From a virus (Duplodnaviria > Heunggongvirae > Uroviricota > Caudoviricetes): a stretch of DNA of 40,609 bases. How positions within the stretch are numbered: the first letter of the stretch is position 1; each line of letters begins with the position of its first letter. The translations under genes and the position numbers were made by a program. The stretch lies in IMG/VR virus record IMGVR_UViG_2778261163_000009, one strand, 5' to 3'. The notes beneath the pieces are model-generated. The model searched no databases, had not been told where the DNA came from, and saw only the letters and a program-made list of their open reading frames with translations. Positions 446 to 40,609 of the stretch are shown in pieces.

Positions 446-575
446 GGTAGTGGCGGCAAAATGGCGATAGCCATGGACTAGGGTTGGGTACACGCACATT
501 GCCCTCTATCCTTATGAGTGATCGCACACACGCCTCTACTTTCAAGCTATATTCTAATCTCAATATGAGGCTACT

Positions 576-1289
576 ATGGACTTCAACCTGAACAAAAAAA
601 TGCCAGTTAATAGATATCTTGTGATAATAGTTTTTGTCCTTTTCATCTTAGCCTGTATGCAGTTTATTTATCTTTGCCTTCGTTCATTAAGCATTGCCCC
701 AAACTATACGGGGACTGTAAGTGACATTATAATAGCTACAACAAATATTATTTTAGCTACCTACGCCGTTCGTGCATTCAAAAACTTATTTAAAGATAAA
801 CTATCCGATAATGCCATTAGTAAAATAGATACAGCATTGATGTCTCTCGATGATTGCATAGATAGTTTTTCAAGCTTATTTTTAAATATGACACTTATTA
901 AGATTTATAAAAACACTAATAACCCCAAGGACCCTCAGTTAGTTAAACAGCTCGATGAAGCAGCAAAAAACATTGAAAAAGCAACAAGTTCAGCCTACAA
1001 GGCAAGATCTATAATTGACTCATTAACTCGTTGGAATATAAGCTTAAACACAGAAAAAGGAATAAGACTAAACCAACTTACCACTGATGTTTTTGAGTTA
1101 GGCATGCAGGCAACAAATATGTATATCGCACTAATAAATGAAATAAACCCTAACTCCCCATACAACTCTTTAACTCATAGACCATTTGATGAGTTATTTA
1201 ACGAATTTAATGAAGAAAGGACCAGAGTTGAAGACGAAAGCAATGAATTAAAAGAGTTCTCTATTCATGAAATATTTAAAATCAAATAA
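576..1289 (+). CDS. Hypothetical membrane-anchored protein (prophage cargo, AT-rich)
   Basis: 237-aa ORF with a GAGG ribosome-binding site; hydrophobic N-terminal helix (LVIIVFVLFILACMQFIYLCL) then a charged, probably helical domain; lies between attL and ogr; no family recognised. Confidence 0.6.
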   Translation: MDFNLNKKMPVNRYLVIIVFVLFILACMQFIYLCLRSLSIAPNYTGTVSDIIIATTNIILATYAVRAFKNLFKDKLSDNAISKIDTALMSLDDCIDSFSSLFLNMTLIKIYKNTNNPKDPQLVKQLDEAAKNIEKATSSAYKARSIIDSLTRWNISLNTEKGIRLNQLTTDVFELGMQATNMYIALINEINPNSPYNSLTHRPFDELFNEFNEERTRVEDESNELKEFSIHEIFKIK

Positions 1290-1366
1290 GTTATTATAGA
1301 ATAATTTTAAAAAATCATTTGCATTCTTCTTGTGTCAAAAATCAAATAACTGTCTCGATATTATTC

Positions 1367-1388
1367 AAAACCCGCCAGCGGCGGGTTA
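1367..1388. terminator. Bidirectional hairpin terminator between the cargo ORF and ogr
   Basis: AAAACCCGCCAGCGGCGGGTT; perfect GC-rich stem with an A-run on one side and a T-run on the opposite strand. Confidence 0.6.
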
Positions 1389-1391
1389 GTA

Positions 1392-1607
1392 TCAGTAAAC
1401 TAATTGCTCCTGCATCCCTTTGGGATGCGGTGGGGCGGCACTGATTTTCTCGGGACGACAAACAGAACGAACAAAGGTTTCATGCGTTACAAACGTATGC
1501 CCACACTCAATATTAGTGCACTGATTGTAACGCTCTTTGGTTTGAGAGGAGACTTGAAAACTACTGCGAGTATGTGCGGCCTGACCACACAACGGACAAT
1601 TCATCAT
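1392..1607 (-). CDS. ogr: Late gene transcriptional activator Ogr (zinc finger)
   Basis: 71 aa, CPLCG...C..IEC four-cysteine motif, size and position as in P2 ogr, next to gene D. Confidence 0.85.
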   Translation of the reverse strand: MMNCPLCGQAAHTRSSFQVSSQTKERYNQCTNIECGHTFVTHETFVRSVCRPEKISAAPPHPKGMQEQLVY

Positions 1608-1675
1608 TTATCAACTCTCCTCATCTTTGCTATATTTACAATAATGATACACCATTATTCAATATTGAGAACCAT

Positions 1676-2776
1676 TTATTCCATCTCAAGATCACCAATC
1701 CTCACTTCAAGCTCAAGACTGGTCGTAAAACCGTTATCCGGGCTGACGGTATGTGTCAGAGTCGTAATGGTCCATTCCGCATCATCTATCGGCTGTTTAA
1801 AGCCACTGACCTTCACAGGCATTTCTGTGTAGAGGTCTGCCCGCCCTTCCGCCAGTTGTAGCGAGAATGACGCAACACCGCGTTGCAGGCGTTCCCACTG
1901 CATTTTCGCCGCTCGTTCAGCGTTGCCCCGGTTGGCATAGGTACGATTAAGTACCAGCACGTTTTCATCCGTACCCACCAGGTAATCGCCCTGCTTCGCT
2001 TCCGGCTCTTTCTTCTGCTTCTTAGTCCTGCGCTTACGCTTCACCGTGGTGCTTTCTTTCTTCGCGGGTTCGCGGGTATGCAACCAGCTGGCAATTACGC
2101 CCGTGTAGGCTCCGCGATCTGCCAGGGTAAAGCGGTGACTGTCGCCGTCCTTGCGTGTGATAGTGATCACCGGCAGTGGTTTACCGCTGGCGCTTTTACC
2201 CTGTCCCTGTCGGATAAATAACAGATTGCCATTTTTCACCGACGCAATAGCACCGTACTGGCGCGCCAACCGCATCAGAAAACTGCCGTCACTCTCATTG
2301 GTCTGGTCTATATGTTCCACGGGTTTATCTGACAGGTCTTTACCCAATGCCATCTTCAGTTTGTGCCGCGCAGCTATTTCCTTCACCACTTCCCCAACGG
2401 TGGTCTTGTGCCACGACTTTTCACGGCGGGTATTCAGCGTTTCACGAAAATCAGCACTTCGCGCCCGGATAGTCAGGCGGTCCGGTGCGCCAGTGTGTTC
2501 AATCTCGTCCACCGTGAATGCCCCTTTCGGGAAAAGCGGCTGCCCCTTCCAGCCCAGCGCCAGCGTAATGACCGCACCACGGCGCGGCAGCGCTATTTTT
2601 CCATCGGCGTCGTCCAGCTCCAGATCAAGCTGGTCCGCTTCAAAGCCCCGGTTATCCGTCAGCGTCAGCCTCATCAGGCGGTTATCCAGCACAGTGGTGA
2701 TATCCCTGCCCTCAATACTGATGCTGAATGCCGGAGTTTTGTTGCCTTTGTTAAGCAGTTCAGAGCTGAAATTCAC
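1676..2776 (-). CDS. D: Tail protein D (late control D protein)
   Basis: 366 aa; sequence and position (after U, before ogr) match P2 gpD. Confidence 0.85.
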   Translation of the reverse strand: MNFSSELLNKGNKTPAFSISIEGRDITTVLDNRLMRLTLTDNRGFEADQLDLELDDADGKIALPRRGAVITLALGWKGQPLFPKGAFTVDEIEHTGAPDRLTIRARSADFRETLNTRREKSWHKTTVGEVVKEIAARHKLKMALGKDLSDKPVEHIDQTNESDGSFLMRLARQYGAIASVKNGNLLFIRQGQGKSASGKPLPVITITRKDGDSHRFTLADRGAYTGVIASWLHTREPAKKESTTVKRKRRTKKQKKEPEAKQGDYLVGTDENVLVLNRTYANRGNAERAAKMQWERLQRGVASFSLQLAEGRADLYTEMPVKVSGFKQPIDDAEWTITTLTHTVSPDNGFTTSLELEVRIGDLEME

Positions 2777-3258
2777 GACAGCAGCCCTCCCACCGTTTTA
2801 CTGATATCACTTAAGGCAGATGTTGCCGTGTCCTGCAGATTATTCAGTTGCGTACTGAGATCACCGAACATATCGGACAGGGATTCATCCACCCGTTTGA
2901 GCGACAGGGTGAACTCAATCCGCCGCGGCATACCGTCGCGGAAAAACTCCGTTTTAGTCAGATTCAGTCCCTCAATCACATACATGCCGTAAATCGTGCC
3001 GCTGCCTTCAATCAGGGGCCATGCTTTTCCCTGTTCTGCCATCTGCTCCAGAGCCAGCAACGACAGCCTGCCGCCCGTTATCTCCGGCATAAGAACACCA
3101 GAAAGCGTCAGCATGTCGTTGTCCGGTCCCAGAAACTGCGTGGACGGACGACGGTTTACCCGGCTGTTTGCCGCATGTCGCCAGCTGCGTTGATACTGCA
3201 GTTCCTGATACGGAACGGTGCGCAGCATAAACACGTACAATCCCAGCACCATCATCAT
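2773..3258 (-). CDS. U: Tail protein U
   Basis: 161 aa; overlaps the D start by 4 nt; P2 gpU-like. Confidence 0.85.
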   Translation of the reverse strand: MMMVLGLYVFMLRTVPYQELQYQRSWRHAANSRVNRRPSTQFLGPDNDMLTLSGVLMPEITGGRLSLLALEQMAEQGKAWPLIEGSGTIYGMYVIEGLNLTKTEFFRDGMPRRIEFTLSLKRVDESLSDMFGDLSTQLNNLQDTATSALSDISKTVGGLLS

Positions 3259-6200
3259 GCGTCGTATCCCCCCTGATCGCTGTAGTTACTCCTGGCTTTT
3301 GCCTTCAGCCTGCGTTCACGTTCATCAAGCTGGCGTGCCACCTCCCGCGCAATATCCTGCGCACTTTGTCCTGGCTGCATCTGAATGATGATCTGCGTCG
3401 GTGCCTCAATCCGGTGAACGGGCGGCACAGTGGCTGCACGACTCACCATCGCTTCGCCGCCTTTCGCGGGAAGTGCCAAAGGATGCAACGGTGGAAGCTC
3501 TGCAGGCGCGGCAGCAACGCCCATCATTCCGGCAACAACGGCAGCCAGTGCAGCTGTATTTCTCCGGCTGGTCACATTTGCCGGGCCGTTAACAATTTCC
3601 GGCCCGTTTTCACCGACGATGCCAAACTGCCCGCGCGGGATATAGCCGCCGCTGTCATACATCCCCGCAAAGCCATATCCCCATGACGGAAAACCACCCG
3701 ATGGCATCATCACTTTGCCGTCTGCATTCACCGTCGCAGGTTGCTGACGCGTCACGCGTTCCGGCAGTTTTGCCTTTGCGGCCTCTTTACTGACAATGCC
3801 GAGTTTTTCCAGCAACCAGGATACGCCGGATTTCAGGGAGTCCAGCGGATGCATGACCATATTCAGCCCTTCCGCCAGTGCCTCCCCGAATCGCCGCCCC
3901 ATTGCCGCTGCACTCTGCAGTTCGGCAGAGGTCGACTTAACGGGCGTCAGCAGATCAGTAAACCAGCCCCACAACGCCTGTACTTTGTCGCCAATCCACT
4001 GGAACACGGGCTTAAGCGGTTCGAATGCTGCACTGACGGGACCTGCCGCCGCTTTGAATCCTTCCACCACGCCACCAAGAAATGCGGTGATGGGTTGCCA
4101 GTATTTCCAGACAACCAGCGCCACGCCCGCCAGTGCAGTAACCACAAGACCTATCGGACTGAGCAGAGCACCTAACAGACCAGATACGGCATACAGGGCA
4201 ACGCGCAGCATCGCCAGTGGACCAGATGCCAGTACTCGCAGCACCGTGCCTGCGGCGGCCAGTCCACCGCGTAGTGCTGCCAGTGGATTCATAAACATCA
4301 CAGCAACCGCACGTAAACCGGATAATCCAGACCGCAAAAGTGCAACCGGCGCACCTGCTACAGTTTTCAGGACATTTCCCGTCAGTGATGCCGTGCGGCG
4401 CAAAGACGACAACGGCGCAGTAAGTAAACCTGCGGCGTTGCCCGATGAAGCAAGCCCGCGTCGCAGCAGTGCCAGTGGTGCGCCAGCCAGCCAGGACAAC
4501 GCGCTGCTGGTTCGAGTTACTGCTGCCGTAACGGAAGGTAACGTTTTGATACCCAGCACAGAGAATCCCAGACGGATCACTGCCAGCGGCCCCAGAACTG
4601 CAGCCAGCGCCACCGCTAAGGTGCCGAGGCCTACGGTAACCGCAGCCACAACAGCCGCTACTTTCATCAGTGTGCCTGTCAGTTCCGGGTTAGCTTCCAC
4701 CCAGCGGCGCAACGCCCCCGTGATGCTTTTCACCGTGTACAGAATATCCATCAGCGGCTGGCGCAGCGTTTCGCCCAGGCTGCTGAAGGTGTTCTGCGCT
4801 CCGGTTTTGACCAGCAACCACTGAGCAGAAAGTGAGTCTTTGTTGATGTCGGATTCTTTCTGCATGGAACCGAGCGCATCATTGCCCGCTGTCAGCTTTA
4901 ACTGGCGCTGCAGTTCCGGCAGGTTGTTTGCCAGTTTCGCCGCGTCATCGCCAAACTCTTTACCAAACAACATGGTCATGGCAGACAGACGCTTGTCCTG
5001 CGGCAGTGCGTTCACCTTCTCCAGCACGCGCTGGATGGTTCCCATCGCATCCTTCGTCATCTGCTTTTCAATCACTTCAGGATTGAGTTTCAGCAGATTC
5101 ATCCCTTCAAAGAAACTCTTGCTTTGCATGGTGGCAATGGACAATTCACGCACCATCGCGTTTGCTGCACTGGCTGCAACCTCTGGCGCAGCGCCCAGTG
5201 TCAGAAAGGTGGAACCCAGCGCCGCCGCTTTACGATAATCCAGACGATCAGCCACACCGCCCAGGCGTTGCATGACATCAATGATGTCTGCCCCTTTCGA
5301 CATGGCGTTATCATCCAGATAGTTCAGCGCATCACCGAGCTGTTCAATATTGCGGGTAGGGATTTTGTAGAGCTGGGCGATTTTCCCCAGACTTTCTGAC
5401 AGTTCATCCGCTGGCAGCTCAAAGGCTGTTGCCGCCTTTGCTGCCGTACTGGCGAAGGCCAGCAGGTCACGTTTCTGGTCTTCCCAGCTGTCGTCAGGGT
5501 TTGCGACGTTCATGCGTGCACCACCTTCAACCAGTGCAGCGAAATCCACCGCACCGTTTTCCATCGGCAACTGTTCGCTGGCAGCCTTGATGGCATCCTG
5601 CATTTCATAAAAACGTGCAGTGCGGTTGCCATTATCGTCACGCAGACCATTGACCTGCTTTGCCACACCTTTCATGGCATCTTCTATGCTGGTATAGCTT
5701 TTTACTGCCGCCATCACTGGCGTCCCCATTGCCAACCCTGCAGCCGTGGTAGTGGCTCCGGCTCCTGCAATACGATCGCGCACCTCCAGCGAACGGGCAT
5801 AACTGGCACGCGCCGCATTCATCCTGCGCTGAGCTTCCCCCAGTCGCTTCAGCCGCGCCTCCTGTTTCGACAGTTCCTGGTTATAACGTGATGTTTCACG
5901 GGCTAAACGGGCAGTTGCTCCCGCATCATCTTTCGCAGAAATTCCCGCCCGGTACAGTTCTGCACGCACAAGCGCCGTTTGCTTCTGCAAATATTTTTGT
6001 TGTTCTTCCAGGCGTTGGACTGCCAGCGTTTGCCGACCTAAAGCCACAAGGTGCCGTTGTGATGGTTGTTCCATCGCCTCCAGCTCAGAGCTAAGCAAAT
6101 TAGCCTTCTGTCTGGCATAGTTCAGCCTGTCGCCTAACTTCTTGTTATCGGCCTGCAGCTTGCGAAATTTTTCCAGGCTGTTACCCGCCTGATTGAGTTG

Positions 6201-10522: not shown

Positions 10523-12205
10523 TCACCAGTAAATATAAACTGCGCCATCTGCTCCGGCACCCGACTGACCCGTTGATGAATTAGGACATAATCCAGCACC
10601 GCCACCTCCAGGCCCAACTGCTGATACCGCTTTTCCGTTAGCTGTATCTCTGAATGAACCTGCTCCTCCGGGGCCACCACCAGAACCACCATTACCAGCT
10701 CCCGATGCGGCAGAAGCAATGGAACCTGGAGAACCTGGCCCAAGCGATGTATTAATTGTTCCCCCGACACCAACTGCGCCTAACCCTCCGGAAGGCTGGC
10801 CTCCGCTATAGCCTCCGGAAGCTGACATGTAAGTCCCGAAACTGCTCGAGCCACCATTTTTACCGTTTACAGAAATACCAGACACAGGCGCACCACCGGC
10901 ACCAACCGTAATCGAAACACTGTTTATACCAGTTAAATCTACCAGCCCCTCAGCAACTCCGCCCCCACCACCTCCTCCGCCACATGTAACGGCTGAAGCG
11001 GTTGTTGAACCTATCCCTCCTGACGCACCGCCACCAATAACTTTGACGTAACATTTTCTTCCTTTGCGCAACTCTTCAGGAACAGTCCAGCTTGTTACTC
11101 CAGCCGTTGTGAAGGCAACCAGATTTCTGAACCCAAATGAACCTTCTCCCAAACCAAGGTATGTGAGAAGACCAGCTACATCCTTTCCACTCAAATTAGT
11201 CAGCGTATTGTCCAGCGGTTGTTTACCTGCCAGCGCATTAAGCATTGTCGTGGCAAAGTTCGGATCATTCCCCAGTGCCGCCGCCAGTTCGTTCAGTGTA
11301 TCCAGTGCCGCAGGTGCAGAACCCACCATTCCTGCAATCGCCGATTTCACAAAAGCCGTAGTGGCAATCTGTGTATTATTGACCGACTGCGCCGCCGTAG
11401 GGGCTGTTGGCGTTCCGGTGAGTGCCGGACTCGACAGCGGCGCTTTCAGTGCCAGCGCATTGTTAATGGTGGTACTGAATTTCGGATCATTGTTAATGGC
11501 TACGGCTATTTCTTTCAGCGTGTCCAGCGTGGCTGGCGCACCATTAATAAGAGCCGTCAGTGCCGCCTGAACAAATGCGGTGGTCGCAAGCTGCGTGGTA
11601 TTATTCCCCGCCGCTGGCGTTGGCGCTTTGGGGGTTCCGGTAAACGTTGGACTTTCTTTGGGTGCATACTGTGAATGCGGGTCCGGCGCGGCAAGATGTT
11701 TTGCCATCAGGTCATCCACGTACACCTTCAGCTCCAGAGCCTTGTCATCCACATACTTGCGGGTTGCCAGCACTACAGCAGGGTCGATTTTCAGGGTGAT
11801 ATTGTCCGTGCTGCTGGTAATCAGCACCATGCGCACGGTCTGGGTACGCCCGCTGCCTTCAGCCAGTTGCGGCTTATAGCTTTCCGGGCAGTTGCCCACG
11901 GCAATCAATGTCCCGGACTCATCAAACAGGCCCACTTCACGTATCCACCAACCGCCCTCGTTTTCAGGGATCACCTGTTCGGCAATAATCTGGCTGCTGT
12001 TCTGCGGGTCGATATAGAGCATATTCAGCGCAGCCCGGCGTTTCTCATTTACCAATGCTGTCTGCTTTGCGTCCGGCGTTGGCAATGTTCCGCCGCCATC
12101 GCCGACCGCCATATGGGTAATTTTTAAAGGCACACCGAGCGCGGCGGCGCTGGCAAGTTTCGCCGCGCCAATATCCGTCAGCAGGGTATAAAATTTTGTG
12201 CTCAT
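10523..12205 (-). CDS. H: Tail fibre protein H (constant N-terminus plus invertible glycine-rich C-terminal tip)
   Basis: 560 aa, P2 gpH-like N-terminus; crossover site encodes LTYLGLGEG about residue 345; C-terminal 200 aa is Gly-rich. Confidence 0.85.
   Translation of the reverse strand: MSTKFYTLLTDIGAAKLASAAALGVPLKITHMAVGDGGGTLPTPDAKQTALVNEKRRAALNMLYIDPQNSSQIIAEQVIPENEGGWWIREVGLFDESGTLIAVGNCPESYKPQLAEGSGRTQTVRMVLITSSTDNITLKIDPAVVLATRKYVDDKALELKVYVDDLMAKHLAAPDPHSQYAPKESPTFTGTPKAPTPAAGNNTTQLATTAFVQAALTALINGAPATLDTLKEIAVAINNDPKFSTTINNALALKAPLSSPALTGTPTAPTAAQSVNNTQIATTAFVKSAIAGMVGSAPAALDTLNELAAALGNDPNFATTMLNALAGKQPLDNTLTNLSGKDVAGLLTYLGLGEGSFGFRNLVAFTTAGVTSWTVPEELRKGRKCYVKVIGGGASGGIGSTTASAVTCGGGGGGGGVAEGLVDLTGINSVSITVGAGGAPVSGISVNGKNGGSSSFGTYMSASGGYSGGQPSGGLGAVGVGGTINTSLGPGSPGSIASAASGAGNGGSGGGPGGAGSFRDTANGKAVSAVGPGGGGAGLCPNSSTGQSGAGADGAVYIYW
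11144..11169. repeat. Invertase crossover site (hix/gix-like 26 bp) inside H, right end of invertible segment
   Basis: TTCTCCCAAACC AA GGTATGTGAGAA; left half-site TTCTCCCAAACC is the reverse complement of the right half-site of 9278..9303; resembles hixL TTCTTGAAAACCAAGGTTTTTGATAA. Confidence 0.7.
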
Positions 12206-15821: not shown

Positions 15822-16092
15822 GTTTCAGTTCCTCAATCCGGCGTTGTCGTTGTCTCAGCAGTACACTGGTCTGTTCTGCTTCGGCATAGAGCCGCGCCTG
15901 CTCCCGGTTATTGGTTTCAGTCAGAATGGACAGGCTGATAAGCTGGCTGTTGCTCTTTGCCAGTGCCTGGCTTTTGCTCTGTAGCTCGTCTGCCTGCGTG
16001 CTGATGGTCTGGCTGGCATCAGCCAGCCGCCACGTCTGCCAGCCCAGCGCCGCCAGTAATAACGCCAGCACAACCAGCAGCAACCGGTTCAT
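15664..16092 (-). CDS. lysB: Inner-membrane spanin LysB
   Basis: 142 aa, N-terminal transmembrane helix then coiled coil. Confidence 0.8.
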   Translation of the reverse strand: MNRLLLVVLALLLAALGWQTWRLADASQTISTQADELQSKSQALAKSNSQLISLSILTETNNREQARLYAEAEQTSVLLRQRQRRIEELKRENEDLRRWADTPLPADIIRLRERPALTGGAAYRQWLSASDAVSAGAGSAAH

Positions 16093-16538
16093 GCTGCTAC
16101 CTGTTGCGCCATCTGATTACGGGTGATCCAGAAAGCAATAACGGTCAGCAGATAAAAGACCAGGGTAATAGCCCACCCCGTCCAGGCGAGACTGACGACA
16201 ATCAGCAATCGCATCACCCAGCTGATAAATACGTTTTCTTTTCGGGTAATTGTCTTCAGCAAAGATGCCCTCAACTCCTGCCAGAGCGGGCCATTCTTAA
16301 TTAACGCAGCCAGTGCTACCGGAATTACCGCCCATGTCAGCAAACAGGCTACCCAAACGCCGGACGCTGCCAGTACCGGAAAAATCCCCTGCGGATACAC
16401 CATTGCTTCGATTAACAGCGCCATCCATAACATCAGAAACAGCCCGCTGATTAATTTCTTTTTCATTTCAGTTTGCTCCCTGTAAGCACCAGGCCATCTC
16501 CCGCGCACGGCGGTTATCCAGCCCCTGATTAAACACAC
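16089..16538 (-). CDS. lysA: Lysis timing membrane protein LysA
   Basis: Multi-helix hydrophobic protein between K and lysB; the probable start is MKKKLISGLFL at 16466. Confidence 0.7.
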   Translation of the reverse strand: MCLIRGWITAVRGRWPGAYREQTEMKKKLISGLFLMLWMALLIEAMVYPQGIFPVLAASGVWVACLLTWAVIPVALAALIKNGPLWQELRASLLKTITRKENVFISWVMRLLIVVSLAWTGWAITLVFYLLTVIAFWITRNQMAQQVAA

Positions 16539-32167: not shown

Positions 32168-33181
32168 ATGACCATCAGAAAACAGCCGAACGGAAAATGG
32201 TTGTGTGAGTGCTATCCCAATGGACGCAATGGCAAGCGCGTGCGTAAGCAATTTGCTACGAAAGGCGAAGCCATTGCGTTTGAAAGCTTCACAATGGAAG
32301 AAGTGAATAAAAAACCGTGGTTGGGTGAAAAGGATGATCGGCGACGCCTATCAGAATTAATTGAGCTTTGGTATTCCCTGTATGGTCAAACACTCGCAGA
32401 CCCCAAGCGCCTCATGGCGAAACTTAGAATTATCTGTAATGGTCTAGGCGATCCCATCGCCTCAGAACTGACAGCTGGTGACTTTACAAAATACCGCGAA
32501 GCACGGTTAAAAGGTGAAATACGAAATGAAGATGGCACACTTATGTCGCCCGTAAAGCCCCGTACGGTAAACCTTGAACAGCGCAATCTATCATCTGTGT
32601 TCGGTACATTAAAAAAACTAGGACACTGGTCAGCACCAAACCCGCTGGCAGGACTTCCGACCTTCAAAATTGCCGAAGGTGAGCTGGCTTTTCTTTCCAC
32701 GGACGAAATCAAGCGCCTGTTGGCGGCATGTGCTGAATCTCAAAACCCTAGCTTACTAATGATTGCAAAAATATGCCTAGCTACTGGCGCACGGTGGAGT
32801 GAAGCCGAAAATCTGCAGGGCCACCAAATATCGAAATACCGAATTACTTATACAAAAACAAAAGGCAAGAAAAACAGAACAGTACCCATATCACAGGAGC
32901 TGTATGACGAACTCCCAAAGAACAGAGGGAAGTTATTCTCACCATGTAGAAAAGCCTTTGAACGAGCAGTAAAACGGGCAGGTATAGATCTACCGGATGG
33001 CCAATGCACCCACGTGCTGCGACATACGTTTGCTAGCCACTTTATGATGAATGGCGGGAACATACTTGTGCTAAGGGATATTTTGGGACATTCGGATATC
33101 AAGATGACCATGGTTTACTCACATTTCTCACCAGATCATCTTGAAGATGCCGTTACTAAGAACCCATTAAACTTGATATAA
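32168..33181 (+). CDS. int: Tyrosine integrase (P2/186 type)
   Basis: 337 aa; C-terminal catalytic region HVLRHTFAS...LGHSDIKMTMVYSHF with the R-H-R-Y tetrad; directly follows cI. Confidence 0.9.
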   Translation: MTIRKQPNGKWLCECYPNGRNGKRVRKQFATKGEAIAFESFTMEEVNKKPWLGEKDDRRRLSELIELWYSLYGQTLADPKRLMAKLRIICNGLGDPIASELTAGDFTKYREARLKGEIRNEDGTLMSPVKPRTVNLEQRNLSSVFGTLKKLGHWSAPNPLAGLPTFKIAEGELAFLSTDEIKRLLAACAESQNPSLLMIAKICLATGARWSEAENLQGHQISKYRITYTKTKGKKNRTVPISQELYDELPKNRGKLFSPCRKAFERAVKRAGIDLPDGQCTHVLRHTFASHFMMNGGNILVLRDILGHSDIKMTMVYSHFSPDHLEDAVTKNPLNLI

Positions 33182-34952: not shown

Positions 34953-35174
34953 TTCGCACCTGTTACGTTATAACACAAGTTTCTTCCATGTTGTATTTAT
35001 TAGTATTTATTAAAAAACAAGAAATTGCAACATAGCGGCAACAATACACACACCAAGAAAATGGCGGCAACTTGGCGGCAGAGCTTTAAAAACGTATAAA
35101 ACGGATAAACACAAAACAATACCAACCAACTGTTTTTGAAAACAAATTATTGTTTTCATTATAATATAAATGGT

Positions 35175-35219
35175 ATGTAGGAATTTCGGACGCGGGTTCA
35201 ACTCCCGCCAGCTCCACCA
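35175..35219 (+). repeat. Right copy of 45-bp direct repeat (ssrA 3' fragment); prophage attR and boundary to the next island
   Basis: Identical to 358..402. Confidence 0.8.
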
Positions 35220-35255
35220 CTTTTTAGTTGTTTGAAGTTCAATGAAGTCTACTAA

Positions 35256-35287
35256 GCCCACACAGCACAAGCTCTGCGGGCTTTTTT
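35256..35287 (+). terminator. Rho-independent terminator following the ssrA 3' fragment
   Basis: GCCCACACAGC / GCTCTGCGGGC imperfect stem followed by TTTTTT. Confidence 0.5.
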
Positions 35288-35384
35288 ACGTCTATTGTCG
35301 TCCAGTGAGAATTGCTGAGAACTACGAGTTATGGCACCCTGAATGGGACCCACTAAGAAGGGTCCAAAAACCGAGGGTCCCAAA

Positions 35385-36614
35385 ATGGCAAAAATCGCTA
35401 AGAAGCTCACTGACACTGAAATCAAAAGCACCAAGCCAGCCGATAAAGAAATCAACTTGTTTGACGGTGATGGTCTGATTCTACGAATCGCTCCTTTGGC
35501 GAAAGGAGGCAAGAAAAATTGGTATTTCAGGTATGCAGTACCAGTGAGCAAGAAAAGAACCAAAATGAGCCTTGGGACATATCCTCACCTTACCCTTGCA
35601 AGAGCCAGAGCCTTACGTGATGAATATCTCTCCTTTCTGGCAAATGGTGTTGATCCCCAAATCCATAACAACGATAAGGCGAAGGCATTAAAGAGTGCTA
35701 CTGAGCACACTCTCCAAGCCGTAGCGCGGAAATGGTTAGATGAGAAGGTAAAGACATCAGGTATCTCACAAGACCATGCAGCAGACATCTGGCGCAGCTT
35801 AGAGAGAAATGTCTTTCCCGGTCTGGGTAATGTCCCTATCAATGAGATCCGACCTAAGCTCTTAAAACAACACCTTGATCCTATTGAGCAACGAGGCGTA
35901 TTGGAAACTCTACGCCGTATCATTTCACGTCTGAATGAAATCTTCCGGTGGGCAGCTACTGAAGAACTTATTGAGTTCAACCCGGCTGACAACCTTGGTC
36001 AAAGATTCAGTAAACCAAAAAAGCAAAATATGCCTGCCCTTCCCCCAAGCGAATTGCCAAGGTTTATGGAATCTTTGACGAATGCGTCAATCCGGTTGGA
36101 AACACGTATGCTAATTGAATGGCAATTGTTGACATGGGTTCGTCCGGGTGAAGCCGTTCGCGCAAGGTGGTCTGATATTGATACAACCAACAGCATTTGG
36201 AACATTCCTGCTGATTTCATGAAAATGAAAAAGCTTCACAAAGTTCCTTTGAGTAAAGAAGCTTTGCGCATCCTTGAATTAATGAAATCAATAAGTGGGC
36301 ATAGAGAATGGGTTTTCCCCAGCATAAAAGCGCCTCTTAATCATATGCATGAACAAACAGCCAACGCAGCTATCATCCGAATGGGGTTCGGAGGCGAGCT
36401 TGTAGCTCACGGTATGCGTTCTATTGCACGAACAGCGGCAGAGGAGTCTGGTAAATTCAGAGCTGAAGTTCTTGAGGCAGCGCTTGCCCACTCGAAAAAA
36501 GATGAAATTATCGCAGCATACAATCGTGCAGAATATCTGATAGAGCGACAGAGTTTGATGCAATGGTGGAGTGATTACGTTCAAGCTCAAAGATCAAATG
36601 CTCTGGTAGCCTAA
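35385..36614 (+). CDS. P4-family tyrosine integrase (IntA/CP4-57-like)
   Basis: From MAKIAKKLTDTEIKSTKP...DGDGL.LRI... which resembles E. coli IntA; C-terminal catalytic region with HGMRS and AYNRAEY; the ORF track starts 14 codons earlier. Confidence 0.8.
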   Translation: MAKIAKKLTDTEIKSTKPADKEINLFDGDGLILRIAPLAKGGKKNWYFRYAVPVSKKRTKMSLGTYPHLTLARARALRDEYLSFLANGVDPQIHNNDKAKALKSATEHTLQAVARKWLDEKVKTSGISQDHAADIWRSLERNVFPGLGNVPINEIRPKLLKQHLDPIEQRGVLETLRRIISRLNEIFRWAATEELIEFNPADNLGQRFSKPKKQNMPALPPSELPRFMESLTNASIRLETRMLIEWQLLTWVRPGEAVRARWSDIDTTNSIWNIPADFMKMKKLHKVPLSKEALRILELMKSISGHREWVFPSIKAPLNHMHEQTANAAIIRMGFGGELVAHGMRSIARTAAEESGKFRAEVLEAALAHSKKDEIIAAYNRAEYLIERQSLMQWWSDYVQAQRSNALVA

Positions 36615-36652
36615 GTATCAGAATAGCTAATATAATCCTGAAGGTAAAGAAA

Positions 36653-37069
36653 ATGGAAACCCTATTCAAAGTTTTTGAAAAATTTAGTTCCAGACCACTT
36701 TTTTTTATTTTTTTCGGACTCTCACTTTGTGAATTTTTTCAGAAACAATCTGTTCTGATGAATCCATCAGCAGATAACATCGCGAAATTATTCGCAGCCA
36801 TGATATTAGTTGTTTTTTTTACTTGGGGATTTGAATGGCTAATCTTCAAGTTCAATGTAAACCTTGAACCTCATGATCAAGGCGATATTGGACCAACAAT
36901 TGGAACGGCTACTTTAGCTGTATACTTAGTTTATGCCTTTCACTTTCTCAGTGAAAATCCTGAAGCATTAAATTTAAAGTTATTAACTAACTCTGGCTTT
37001 ATATACAGCACAACTCTATTATTATTCTCATTAGAATGCATGAAGCTTAGAAGACTTAAACAAAAATAA
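36653..37069 (+). CDS. Hypothetical small multi-pass membrane protein
   Basis: 138 aa with three to four hydrophobic helices; 39 bp after int on the same strand; AT-rich. Confidence 0.5.
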   Translation: METLFKVFEKFSSRPLFFIFFGLSLCEFFQKQSVLMNPSADNIAKLFAAMILVVFFTWGFEWLIFKFNVNLEPHDQGDIGPTIGTATLAVYLVYAFHFLSENPEALNLKLLTNSGFIYSTTLLLFSLECMKLRRLKQK

Positions 37070-37140
37070 ACAACATCATTGTGATGATAAATATAAAATA
37101 GGCATGGCGAAAAAAAATCACCACGCCTAAAATATAATAA

Positions 37141-38907
37141 TTATGGTAGCATCATTGATACATAATCCACACCAATCCTTGAGCTATACTGAGACGCTAT
37201 AGCCTGATATCTTTCTGCATAACCAGTTCTCAGTTGAGATTTAAGTTTGAGTCGGACAGGAACATTTTGCACGTTGCCATCCATATTACTTAAAAACACG
37301 GCAGAAATAATATTTTTTTCTTCGCCATCAACTGTTGTTCCATGATTCAACACCACCATATAATCAACAACAGGAAGCGTTTTATCCCCTTCGAAAATAG
37401 AGAGATATTTTCTTTGATTTTTATGCATTACATATATATATTTCGAATGTTCAGCAAATGGCAATGCTTTACTCTGACTGGCGTTAAAAAGCTCCAGAAC
37501 TTTAATGAGCCTGTGCGGACTTAATCTTACATGGTGAGGGTCGTTACCCTGAGTAGGAACCAAATCACATGCCGCAGATACACATAAATACCATTTGTTC
37601 GACTCTGTATCAAAGAAAATAGTGCCAGTAGAAATATGACCATCTTCAAAATTCTTTGAAGACAAATTCATATTTAAAGCATGATACATTTCGTGATAAG
37701 TATCATTATTTGATGGCAGATCCATTTTTGAAGAGCAATATTGGAGCAATGCAGCAACTCCGCTGTTAGCGTATTCATTTGAATAGCTATCAAAAACACT
37801 TTTGATAAATTCATCCAGCGTATTATTATTTTTAAGTCTTTGATAAAGCTCTTCTGATAAATTACCAAATACAAAGTCAATATTTCTACATCTAATATCA
37901 GGCGAGTCTGATTTTAATATCTCATTTAACCACGCAGCTTGACCGTAATGATCGTTAGCCAAATGATTTACAAAAGATAAAGCCTCAGCTTCGATTGCAT
38001 TCTGAATTTCAGATTTTATTAACTGATAATAAGATGGTTTCCATTCAATGAGAGAATCATTGAGAGTTTGCCAAATCCTATCTCCATCGTTTTCATGATC
38101 ATCTTGAACCTTATGAAATAGGGAGACAAAGATATTACCACATTGAATCCATTTTACTCCGCTTTCATCACCCCGAATGACATTGCCAGATGTGTTGCTA
38201 GAAATAATTGCATTTCTAGACACAGCATATTCTGCAATCATTTTTGCAATGAAGTTTTTATCCTTTTGATCCTCCAACACAGCATCATCATGTATTAATC
38301 TTTTAATTCTTCTACAAGGCTTACTGTCTTTAATATAGGCTATTGTTTCATCTCTTGTGAGAGCTTTATTACCATTATCATTTAAGTTCGGTAATACAAC
38401 GTCTTCCCAATAACTTTGGACATCTTCATTATCGTAGTCAATGATCAAGCTGTTGATATCCAGAGCACCTTTGAGAGTCGATGATATCTGCATCCAAACC
38501 GTTTCTAAATTCTCTCTAGTATATATTACAATCATATTTAAATGATCGGAGTCTTTCAAATCTTGTAATAGTTTAAGTGTTTTATCAGGTGCATTATTAT
38601 CAAGATGATAATCTACAATAATAAGATCTGATTTTCTAATCCGATCCACATCGAAATTAACAGAACCATTGTCAACATCACAAATCATATTTTTAGATTG
38701 AAAAAAGCTCTCAAGAGTAGCGGCTCGTTTAGATGAGTCAATTTTGTTGTAGTCTAAATCAACTTCGTTATTCAACGCCCTGATTGATTCAGAATACGTC
38801 AGAAAATCGTCATCAATCATGACAACGGAACGAATTGCATTTTCGCAGAAAGTTTTCTGGACAAGAGAATTATAATTTGCCACTGTCATATTAGAACTCC
38901 ACTCCAT
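37141..38907 (-). CDS. Response-regulator receiver domain protein with a large uncharacterised C-terminal output domain
   Basis: 588 aa; N-terminal receiver-like motifs VVMIDDD (acidic pocket), DLIIVDYHL (phospho-acceptor Asp), MIVIYT (Thr); about 430 aa of unassigned C-terminal sequence; start overlaps the upstream kinase gene by 17 nt. Confidence 0.55.
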   Translation of the reverse strand: MEWSSNMTVANYNSLVQKTFCENAIRSVVMIDDDFLTYSESIRALNNEVDLDYNKIDSSKRAATLESFFQSKNMICDVDNGSVNFDVDRIRKSDLIIVDYHLDNNAPDKTLKLLQDLKDSDHLNMIVIYTRENLETVWMQISSTLKGALDINSLIIDYDNEDVQSYWEDVVLPNLNDNGNKALTRDETIAYIKDSKPCRRIKRLIHDDAVLEDQKDKNFIAKMIAEYAVSRNAIISSNTSGNVIRGDESGVKWIQCGNIFVSLFHKVQDDHENDGDRIWQTLNDSLIEWKPSYYQLIKSEIQNAIEAEALSFVNHLANDHYGQAAWLNEILKSDSPDIRCRNIDFVFGNLSEELYQRLKNNNTLDEFIKSVFDSYSNEYANSGVAALLQYCSSKMDLPSNNDTYHEMYHALNMNLSSKNFEDGHISTGTIFFDTESNKWYLCVSAACDLVPTQGNDPHHVRLSPHRLIKVLELFNASQSKALPFAEHSKYIYVMHKNQRKYLSIFEGDKTLPVVDYMVVLNHGTTVDGEEKNIISAVFLSNMDGNVQNVPVRLKLKSQLRTGYAERYQAIASQYSSRIGVDYVSMMLP

Positions 38908-40609
38908 TGAACTGGATCACAAAATTAGCGCCATCTTTTATTAAATAGTTATCGCCTTCATCAGGTTCTGAATACCATATTTTATGATGTGCAACAGCAA
39001 GGTTTTCTCGACATAGATACAGACCTACCCCATGTCCATTTGCTCTTTTGCTATAAAATAGTTCAAATAGTCGCGGGATATCATCGGTATCAATTGCCGG
39101 ACCAGAATTTGCTATGATAACCAAAGAATTCACAAAACCAATCTTTATGAGCCTATTATTTGACAGACTGACCCAATACATTGCATTGTTGATAATATTA
39201 GTAAAAACAGGATAGATCCTTGATGGTATATCTGTTATTGCGATTTGCTTAAACTCTTCACTAAATTCAATAGTTATTCGTTGCCGTTCGAAACGCTCCC
39301 CAAAGAACTTCAGGACATAATCCATGATATTTTTTCCAGTTATTCTCTGCCTGGATTGATAACCTGATATTTTCAAAGGTGATAAGAAACGTATTTGTTG
39401 AGTAAGCGATCTGTGAGCATTTAACGCCAATGAAAAACCAGGGTGTTCTTTTACAGAAGTAGGAAGAGAGTTTAGTCCTCTGGTTACCATAGAATCCATT
39501 TCTTCAAGTTCATGAGATATTATCTCAACACTAATACCTAACTGTGCAAGCGCGTTTAAACTTTTAGCTTTTTCTTCAAAATATGAGCGTTCTTCTTCAG
39601 ATAATGAGAATGCTGAATCTAAGTTTATACCTTCAAATAATCTATCGAGACCTTTTATTATTGATTGATATTTGAAAGTTAGGGTATCAACTGACTCAAC
39701 ATATAAACTATCGAGCAAATTAAACACATTTTCAATTTGTGAATCATTATCTATTGAATCAACAACTGATATAGTTTTAGCATAATAATCACTTCGATCA
39801 ACCTTTATTTCATCGGCCCATTTTTTTAAAAGAGAATGTATCTTCTCCTCTATCGTGTTATTAAACTTAGTTAGTTTAGAATTAATAATACCTTGATTTT
39901 TTTCAAGGTGATTTTTCGCTGACAATGAAGGCTCAAGTTTATTTAATTCAGAATCAAGTTTATTAATTGCTAACTTCATTTGTAGAATATACGCAGAGAA
40001 CTCATTAAATTTATCTCTGTAGTCTCTATATTTCTCTTCATACATTCCAAGTTTTGGAGGTTTGATAGGCGTTTTAATTTCACTGCGCAACGCATCTAAG
40101 TTTGTAAGATCACTGTCTATAATTTTAAGATAGTTTAAATCTAACGAACCATCAGTTTTATCAAGCTTAGTTTTCAGCCTTTTAACAGCCTCCAAGGAAG
40201 CATCAAGAACTGGTGTCTGATTCTTCAAAGCTTCTGAAAAACTTTTTTGTGTTGATTTTCGAGCTTGTTGTTGAGCAGATTTTCTTAACTCTTTTTCACG
40301 CTTAACTTGTTCTAAAAGCTCTTTACGGTCATCAGAACGTGAACCAAAAAATCTATCAGCAAGTTCAGTTAACAAATTAGATATAATAGTTTTCAGTTCT
40401 CTTGCAGCCTGGTTTCTTATGAATCCCTCTCTCCCCGACTTATCTTTCAGCTCTTTATTACTGGATTGAGTAATTCCAATATAACCAAAAATCCTTCTAT
40501 TAGACCAATAATATCGCCCTGCATTCCATGAACGTCTTTCTTCTATCTGGAAGAAATCATTATCTACTCGACCATAAGGTAATACTCTCAAGCTATCCCT
40601 AAAAATCAT
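38891..40609 (-). CDS. Histidine kinase (HisKA + HATPase_c), probably N-terminally truncated by the window edge
   Basis: H-box EIISHELEEMD; ATP-binding N box FTNIINNAMYW, G1 NSGPAID, G2 GHGVGL; long coiled-coil region upstream; ORF runs to the last base of the window. Confidence 0.65.
   Translation of the reverse strand: MIFRDSLRVLPYGRVDNDFFQIEERRSWNAGRYYWSNRRIFGYIGITQSSNKELKDKSGREGFIRNQAARELKTIISNLLTELADRFFGSRSDDRKELLEQVKREKELRKSAQQQARKSTQKSFSEALKNQTPVLDASLEAVKRLKTKLDKTDGSLDLNYLKIIDSDLTNLDALRSEIKTPIKPPKLGMYEEKYRDYRDKFNEFSAYILQMKLAINKLDSELNKLEPSLSAKNHLEKNQGIINSKLTKFNNTIEEKIHSLLKKWADEIKVDRSDYYAKTISVVDSIDNDSQIENVFNLLDSLYVESVDTLTFKYQSIIKGLDRLFEGINLDSAFSLSEEERSYFEEKAKSLNALAQLGISVEIISHELEEMDSMVTRGLNSLPTSVKEHPGFSLALNAHRSLTQQIRFLSPLKISGYQSRQRITGKNIMDYVLKFFGERFERQRITIEFSEEFKQIAITDIPSRIYPVFTNIINNAMYWVSLSNNRLIKIGFVNSLVIIANSGPAIDTDDIPRLFELFYSKRANGHGVGLYLCRENLAVAHHKIWYSEPDEGDNYLIKDGANFVIQFNGVEF

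Follow-up and report, generated by a model that had tools for sequence, protein, structure and literature searches.

The closest described relatives of the locus considered here are gene pairs in which a histidine kinase gene is linked to a gene for a receiver-domain protein, and from which the Pfam families PF19191 (HEF_HK) and PF19192 (Response_reg_2) were defined in 2021 (Bellieny-Rabelo, Pretorius & Moleleki, Genome Biol Evol, PMC8011034). These workers reported 91.6% linkage of both genes in 644 regions, a conserved C5 methylase gene upstream, and an enrichment of restriction-modification genes nearby. The dominant kinase architecture, HATPase_c_3+HEF_HK+HATPase_c, accounted for 174 of 222 sequences, and a minority “group 2” devoid of the N-terminal domain for 34 of the 222; an N-terminal HATPase_c_3 module is carried by the kinase in 83% of members. 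Descent from paraMORC ATPases was suggested, as was a regulatory role tied to restriction-modification, the genes having first been noticed through their up-regulation in Pectobacterium during infection. That data set includes members from Escherichia coli, and no experiments, function or analysis of the receiver C-terminus were reported with it (PMC8011034). A missing phosphatase residue in PF19191 has been noted in a preprint (bioRxiv 10.64898/2026.02.27.708494). Here we analyze one such pair, a kinase gene and a receiver gene on the minus strand at the far end of a 40,609-nucleotide (nt) stretch of DNA, the IMG/VR virus record IMGVR_UViG_2778261163_000009 (this whole stretch is called the window below). 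The HEF_HK/Response_reg_2 family is already known, and the window pair is a decayed member of it: very probably a truncated remnant of a methylase-kinase-receiver system and most likely inert, silent or harmless genetic debris carried at the ssrA gene.

Both open reading frames (ORFs) lie where a preliminary description of the window had placed them (572 and 588 amino acids, aa; Table 1), and its assignment of kinase and receiver motifs is borne out. Response_reg_2 matches aa 25-181 of the receiver protein with an E-value of 3.7e-31. In the kinase, HEF_HK and HATPase_c are both recognized by Pfam, the H-box SHELEEMD spans aa 365-372 with His366 (codon 39512-39514) as phospho-acceptor, and the N, F and G2 boxes can be located in the catalytic (CA) domain. 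The 572-aa product begins with the end of an S5-like region and continues through a long helical linker into the DHp and CA domains; it has no N-terminal GHKL (HATPase_c_3) sensor module. The family to which the pair belongs is not new, both of its domains having been Pfam families since 2021.

The extent of the loss is evident from close relatives. A protein search returns kinase homologs of 988 aa and 99% identity in Salmonella, Serratia and Klebsiella, which carry HATPase_c_3 (PF13589) at aa 28-137; Met1 of the window kinase aligns to residue 417 of such a homolog, so that 416 residues precede it and His366 corresponds to H782. The islands of these three genera share the smpB/ssrA site, the integrase and a 138-aa gene with the E. 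coli island, and the window is 99.0% identical to them up to the breakpoint, its receiver protein being 99.8% identical to that of the intact operons. In these operons the order is C5 DNA methylase (PF00145, 6.6e-59), 988-aa kinase, then 582-aa receiver protein, with a relaxase and a tandem array of three tyrosine recombinases farther downstream.

In E. coli, by comparison, the front of the operon is gone. A 4-kb region containing the pair matches 586 of 5,426 complete E. coli genomes, chromosomal in every case and 100% identical to hundreds of chromosomes, which gives a patchy distribution of about 10% of complete genomes. In strain 2014C-3307 the island is flanked by ssrA on one side and, on the other, by a ygaQ-like pseudogene that neighbors glaH, with an IS3 element just upstream of the gene annotated “ATP-binding protein,” 121 nt before its annotated start (16011-16131 of that locus). 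Here, 41 in-frame sense codons precede the annotated kinase ATG and run straight into the IS3 terminal repeat, which after these 121 nt reads ...GTGATCCTACCCACGTAATATGGACACAGG on the plus strand of the window. The identical IS3 junction is found in 484 E. coli genomes, of about 561 carriers. The methylase of the 99%-identical intact allele and about the first 375 codons of its kinase are absent from every one of the 5,426 genomes, where matches to a query of methylase plus kinase 5' end are limited to the last 114 nt before the junction; likewise, there is no C5 methylase among the ORFs and Pfam matches of window positions 35000-40609. These observations point to an IS3-associated deletion that removed the methylase and the sensor half of the kinase in the island-carrying E. 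coli lineage. The preliminary description had expected the kinase N-terminus and further partner genes just beyond the window, which is almost certainly wrong, and its “572+” aa is misleading: the last window position coincides with the RefSeq-annotated ATG, and in identical E. coli loci the frame has just 41 more codons before IS3.

Two further E. coli-type loci were noted in passing. In the O103:H2 strain CEC12044 the kinase remnant abuts an amylase pseudogene with no IS3 between, and a 5.6-kb contig labelled as part of a Bacteroidales metagenome-assembled genome (MAG; DAIPZW010000118.1) matches the E. coli remnant, truncated kinase included, at 100% identity. The latter is probably a mis-binned E. 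coli contig.

It might nonetheless be argued that the two genes form a complete and active phosphorelay-gated anti-phage module, with the rest of the kinase lying beyond the window. Several observations pull in that direction and away from the view of a dead remnant. Both window ORFs are open, the catalytic His, the Asp and the ATP-binding motifs are intact, and the kinase fragment is preceded by a plausible AGGA ribosome-binding site; the island adjoins the gene for a genuine anti-phage dCTP deaminase; and in about 80% of the carriers sampled the receiver gene has its full length and no interruption, a figure that covers interruption and length only. The IS3 junction, moreover, is inferred from E. 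coli loci 99.98% identical to the window, which itself stops at 40609. Set against these are an IS3 end located 121 nt upstream at identical loci and the absence of the methylase and 375 N-terminal codons from all 5,426 genomes, as well as the rarity, in other species, of relatives that lack the sensor module and methylase. No PADLOC model matches the pair, and in about 20% of the sampled E. coli copies the receiver gene carries an insertion or indel. Of 58 E. coli receiver genes sampled at even spacing, four are split by IS3-family or ISVsa5 elements and eight have length changes of 2-3 nt, out of frame in seven; in CEC12044 (938-3999 of that locus) the annotation gives the receiver gene as a pseudogene. 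We regard an intact two-gene module as very unlikely, and the claim of an active defense module gives way before these signs of decay. That the truncated pair itself is still active is likewise improbable; because it has neither sensor nor methylase, it could not discriminate between DNAs.

Two other lines of inquiry bear on the state of the E. coli copy. A promoter scan upstream of the truncated kinase found sites no more numerous than in shuffled sequence. Counted against the intact allele, substitutions number 12 synonymous and one non-synonymous in the receiver gene and three and five, respectively, in the kinase remnant; because all five non-synonymous changes in the kinase lie at sites variable within the family, these counts are uninformative on relaxed selection.

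What, then, is the intact system? The methylase-kinase-receiver order recurs on an E. coli conjugative element (73% identity), on an acidobacterial integrative element (24% identity) and in a chromosomal context of a metagenome, and the carrier elements are mobilizable or conjugative, encoding relaxase, TraG, VirB4 and ArdC. A scan limited to one genome per species recovered 42 loci, 36 of them assessable. A kinase with the N-terminal GHKL module stands directly upstream of the receiver gene at all 36 (one copy, in locus L040, being cut short); at 34 a C5 methylase adjoins the two genes, on the upstream side or just downstream. The methylase follows the receiver gene, mostly in convergent orientation, at L023-L026, L029, L035-L037, L039, L045, L051 and L052, from Acinetobacter, Sphingomonas, Pseudoalteromonas and other genera; methylase linkage is conserved and operon structure is not. 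The first of the two exceptions is L034 (Roseomonas indoligenes, 479-3004), where the methylase is replaced, upstream of a full-length kinase, by an 841-aa ORF that matches no Pfam family and may be an alternative modification or partner gene. The second, L040 (Gemmatimonadetes MAG, 1905-6026), has no C5 methylase at the locus and a DDE transposase (DDE_5, 1.3e-87) directly upstream of a 5'-truncated kinase, and is a second, independent truncation by a transposase that repeats the E. coli event. As judged from these comparisons, the natural unit is one of three genes: a C5 methylase, a paraMORC-type GHKL sensor fused to a kinase, and a receiver-effector.

The element around some of these operons deserves mention in its own right. 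At L002 (1-6807), an intact ssrA island, and also at L003 and L005-L007, a MOB relaxase with a NikA-like partner lies beside the three-gene operon, and the tandem trio of the L002 type consists of two genes with Phage_integrase domains and a third, of 543-626 aa, with no Pfam match. This layout recalls the “recombinase in trio” element, an unconfirmed likeness. The intact ssrA island looks mobilizable.

In both lineages that have lost the methylase, E. coli and L040, the sensor end of the kinase is lost as well. Such joint loss hints at restriction-modification-like autoimmunity, two cases not being proof. It is also what would be expected if loss of the methylase alone were lethal, and hence if the parent three-gene system were mainly a selfish addiction module that practices post-segregational killing in the manner of type II restriction-modification: the methylase is lost, the DNA becomes unmarked, the MORC-kinase fires and the effector kills, the E. 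coli remnant being a disarmed survivor. Carriage on mobilizable and conjugative elements with relaxase, TraG, VirB4 and ArdC would suit such a role, and the selfish behavior of restriction-modification systems is discussed by the authors of the family (PMC8011034). There are, however, just two independent cases; addiction and defense are not mutually exclusive for restriction-modification-like systems; and no experiment was found in the literature. We consider a mainly selfish function unlikely, if clearly less so than a complete module in the window.

The receiver gene of the window is intact as an ORF, and its product is identical to RefSeq WP_000214990.1 of strain 2014C-3307. The 17-nt overlap with the kinase gene given in the preliminary description holds for the ORFs as such; the true start, however, is most likely Met7 (38889), since RefSeq annotates it and this Met is nearly invariant in relatives, and with it the protein has 582 aa and the two genes lie 1 nt apart. 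The pocket residues are D32/D33, D99 (the acceptor, codon 38611-38613), T130 and K266. Across 56 relatives of only 20-36% identity, D32, D94, D99, T130 and K266 are invariant, and in the structural model D32, D99, T130 and K266 stand at the ends of strands 1, 3, 4 and 5. The receiver thus carries a complete phospho-acceptor pocket.

Beyond the receiver the preliminary description saw 430 aa that it could not assign. The lack of any family match stands; the length does not, as the receiver fold reaches to about aa 290 and leaves an output module of about 300 aa. A separate structural model of aa 290-588 (predicted local distance difference test, pLDDT, 87.6; predicted template-modeling score, pTM, 0.81) comprises a helical bundle and a beta-rich domain. 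Invariant in the module are P291, N412, G428, C447 and R577, and nearly so C442, P445, Q558, L559, G579 and D581, the sharpest motifs being a C-x-x-P-A-C-D strand and an R-I-G-V-D-F tail. Profile and structure searches of this domain had been proposed in the preliminary description. Searches of aa 291-588 against Pfam, NCBIfam, PADLOC and PDB profiles gave chance-level matches only, Pfam having been searched with the whole receiver protein and 18 isolated beta-domains at E up to 10, and Foldseek found no match to the model in the PDB at E <= 0.001. The likeness of the modeled beta-barrel to MazF/CcdB is a fold-level lead only; sequence identity to these proteins is 5-12%, and hhalign gives the beta-domain profile a probability of <1% against a small MazF alignment. 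The output module is about three times the size of the MazF/Kid/CcdB toxin fold and possesses invariant Cys, Asn and Arg residues of its own.

When 1.84 billion cluster representatives were searched by profile, about 1,060 clusters matched, 472 of them at E < 1e-30. Because the best 150 of the roughly 1,060, nearly all of 560-680 aa, match the receiver protein end to end, receiver plus output module is a fixed architecture, and the roughly 300-aa module appears confined to the HEF_HK/Response_reg_2 family; among the same best 150 clusters the module was seen in no other fusion.

The output module also bears on whether this is an ordinary regulatory two-component system, with a C-terminal module that binds DNA or another target and controls, for example, restriction-modification genes. 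The 2021 authors proposed regulation linked to restriction-modification, with up-regulation in Pectobacterium during infection in its favor (PMC8011034), and a small MazF/CcdB-like beta-barrel, as modeled here, could in principle bind nucleic acid. Yet Pfam searches find no helix-turn-helix, winged helix or other recognized output domain in the module, the three genes move as a cassette between unrelated contexts, which leaves no stable regulon, and the pair occurs patchily, in about 10% of E. coli genomes. We consider a regulatory function very unlikely.

For the intact system, a signaling route can be proposed on the basis of its parts: a C5 cytosine methylase and a soluble kinase with a GHKL+S5-type module in the usual sensor position, a coiled coil, a canonical DHp His and a CA domain, the three genes moving together on mobile elements. 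The methylase would mark host DNA as self. The MORC-like module would sense DNA without the methylation mark, and this would trigger autophosphorylation of the DHp His. As its H-box has no T/N phosphatase residue, the kinase is probably one-directional. The phosphate would pass to Asp99 of the receiver, and the C-terminal module, with its helical part, its MazF/CcdB-like barrel and its invariant Cys, Asn and Arg residues, would then be freed to attack the invader or the infected cell, either as a toxin or as an effector directed at nucleic acid. The preliminary description had the pair as a phosphorelay-gated effector, of which the His-Asp pair with a non-DNA-binding, unassigned output holds, while the notion of a self-contained two-gene unit yields to a natural unit of three.

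Tentatively, the locus may be seen as the fossil of a methylation-keyed immune or addiction class in which a MORC-like DNA-sensing ATPase, instead of working on DNA directly, acts through a His-Asp phosphorelay on a new type of effector of about 300 aa with a MazF/CcdB-like barrel, a reading that we hold to be possible while stopping short of probable; the window receiver gene would then encode a working copy of the effector. A few points count against the proposed mechanism and a defense role. The steps of sensing, phosphotransfer and effector action are inferred. No signature or fold match of the PD-(D/E)xK, HNH or GIY-YIG type was found in the kinase or the receiver protein, which is to say no recognizable nuclease motif. 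PADLOC-DB v2 holds no model that matches either protein, which makes defense a candidate role, and no experiment on any HEF_HK/Response_reg_2 member was found in the literature.

The remaining features of the window place the pair in its setting (Table 1). The tmRNA gene (ssrA) occupies 40-402, in a neighborhood of E. coli type, and a P2-family prophage extends from 403 to about 33181, with its own integrase at 32168-33181. Prophage and deaminase together are 96% identical to P2-type phage records and are flanked by a perfect 45-bp repeat of the ssrA 3' end (358-402 and 35175-35219); therefore the prophage integrated later than the P4-integrase island, entering ssrA after it and displacing it by 35 kb. 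The older island begins at the distal 45-bp copy and consists of the P4-type integrase, the 138-aa ORF and then the two minus-strand genes. G+C content over the pair is 0.33-0.34 versus 0.52-0.59 in the adjoining prophage, so the earlier account of an AT-rich, horizontally acquired island beside a P4-type integrase at ssrA is upheld by composition, by the PRK09692 match and by the ssrA copy alike.

Table 1. Positions of the genes, domains and sites discussed (window coordinates)
Feature	Position	Strand	Basis and remarks
Anti-phage dCTP deaminase, intact, 585 aa	33195-34952	-	PADLOC dCTPase 2.2e-146; NCBIfam NF041025 7.5e-126
Duplicate of ssrA 3' end, attachment site abutting the island	35175-35219	+	45 bp, identical to 358-402
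P4-type tyrosine integrase of the island	35343-36614	+	NCBIfam PRK09692, 4.8e-132; intact, 423 aa
Hydrophobic hypothetical protein, 138 aa	36653-37069	+	ORF
Terminator-like hairpin	37099-37129	-	12-bp stem then T run; 12 nt past receiver stop codon
Receiver-domain effector gene, intact, 588 aa as ORF	37141-38907	-	ORF, Pfam, RefSeq
C-terminal output module, aa 291-588	37144-38037	-	Helical part 293-416, beta-rich part 417-573
Receiver (REC) fold, aa 12-290	38038-38874	-	Helical insertion between helix 4 and strand 5
5'-truncated histidine kinase gene, 572 aa	38891-40609	-	ORF; Pfam; residues 417-988 of the 988-aa kinase
HATPase_c catalytic (CA) domain, PF02518, aa 462-553	38951-39226	-	Pfam 1.8e-11, 44.9 bits vs cutoff 26.4
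HEF_HK (DHp) domain, PF19191, aa 356-414	39368-39544	-	Pfam 1.2e-05, 26.1 bits vs cutoff 24.1

The 138-aa gene accompanies the integrase end in E. coli and in the intact islands; because it is missing from the distant loci, its hydrophobic product is probably not a component of the methylase-kinase-receiver system. The strong hairpin past the receiver gene marks the end of the operon. In strain 2014C-3307 the P4-type integrase is frameshifted by a 1-nt deletion (10787-12015 of that locus), a further sign of island decay in part of the lineage. The dCTP deaminase gene directly adjoins the P2-type integrase, a known site of defense cargo in P2-like phages. It scores 420 bits against the NCBIfam antiphage_deaminase model (cutoff 400) and, carried by the P2-family prophage, is the credible active defense gene of this neighborhood.

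The window pair is itself of little weight, a disarmed leftover in about 10% of complete E. coli genomes. More is gained from its relatives: the analysis fixes the true unit as methylase, MORC-kinase and receiver-effector, provides a confident structural model for an output module without known relatives, and identifies near-identical intact operons as candidates for direct study. Those operons are reasonable candidates for a new immune or addiction system, keyed to methylation and driven by a phosphorelay, whose effector is unclassified; should they work as proposed, they would link MORC-type DNA sensing to two-component signaling in immunity.

Among known systems, the HEF_HK/Response_reg_2 family is the one to which the window pair belongs, its two genes passing both Pfam thresholds and being adjacent and co-oriented; the 99%-identical intact islands show the upstream methylase and HATPase_c_3 module that the 2021 authors describe (PMC8011034), and the pair without them has the “group 2” architecture, arisen here, it would seem, through IS3-associated deletion. 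With classical two-component systems the pair shares the phospho-His DHp and CA domains of the kinase and the Asp pocket of the receiver, but no known output domain of a response regulator, DNA-binding or enzymatic, is recognized in the window receiver, and the pair is not a classical regulator. As for restriction-modification systems, both a methylase and a recognizable restriction endonuclease are missing from the pair. The methylation-associated defense system MADS was considered and rejected, as that system comprises eight genes and uses an N6 methylase, and its preprint contains no receiver or MORC terms.

The likeness to Detocs lies in a soluble sensor kinase that hands phosphate to a receiver fused to a non-DNA-binding effector, and in carriage within defense islands. 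Detocs (DtcA/DtcB/DtcC), however, has an Hpt buffer and a receiver-PNP effector, both absent from the window pair, and, unlike in Detocs, the kinase of the intact relatives takes its input from a MORC-like GHKL ATPase and the system is linked to a DNA methylase. PADLOC-DB v2 includes Detocs models; at E up to 0.1 its only matches to the pair are the unrelated C3a59 (0.0028) and PD-T4-6 (0.026). Since PADLOC gives no meaningful match, Pfam shows neither an Hpt nor a PNP domain, and the intact operons have no third small gene, Detocs was rejected, in agreement with the preliminary description.

A nearer parallel on the input side is offered by the paraMORC/MORC GHKL ATPases of restriction-modification systems (Iyer, Abhiman & Aravind, 2008, PMC2292703), among whose relatives GHKL-Shedu (paraMORC3, VcSduA; PMC12137116) is named. 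In the intact relatives of the window pair, too, an N-terminal GHKL+S5 module is linked to cytosine methylases and placed so as to control an effector. The described paraMORCs couple to helicases or nucleases by fusion or within an operon, whereas these relatives fuse the GHKL module to a histidine kinase core and would signal by phosphotransfer to a separate protein.

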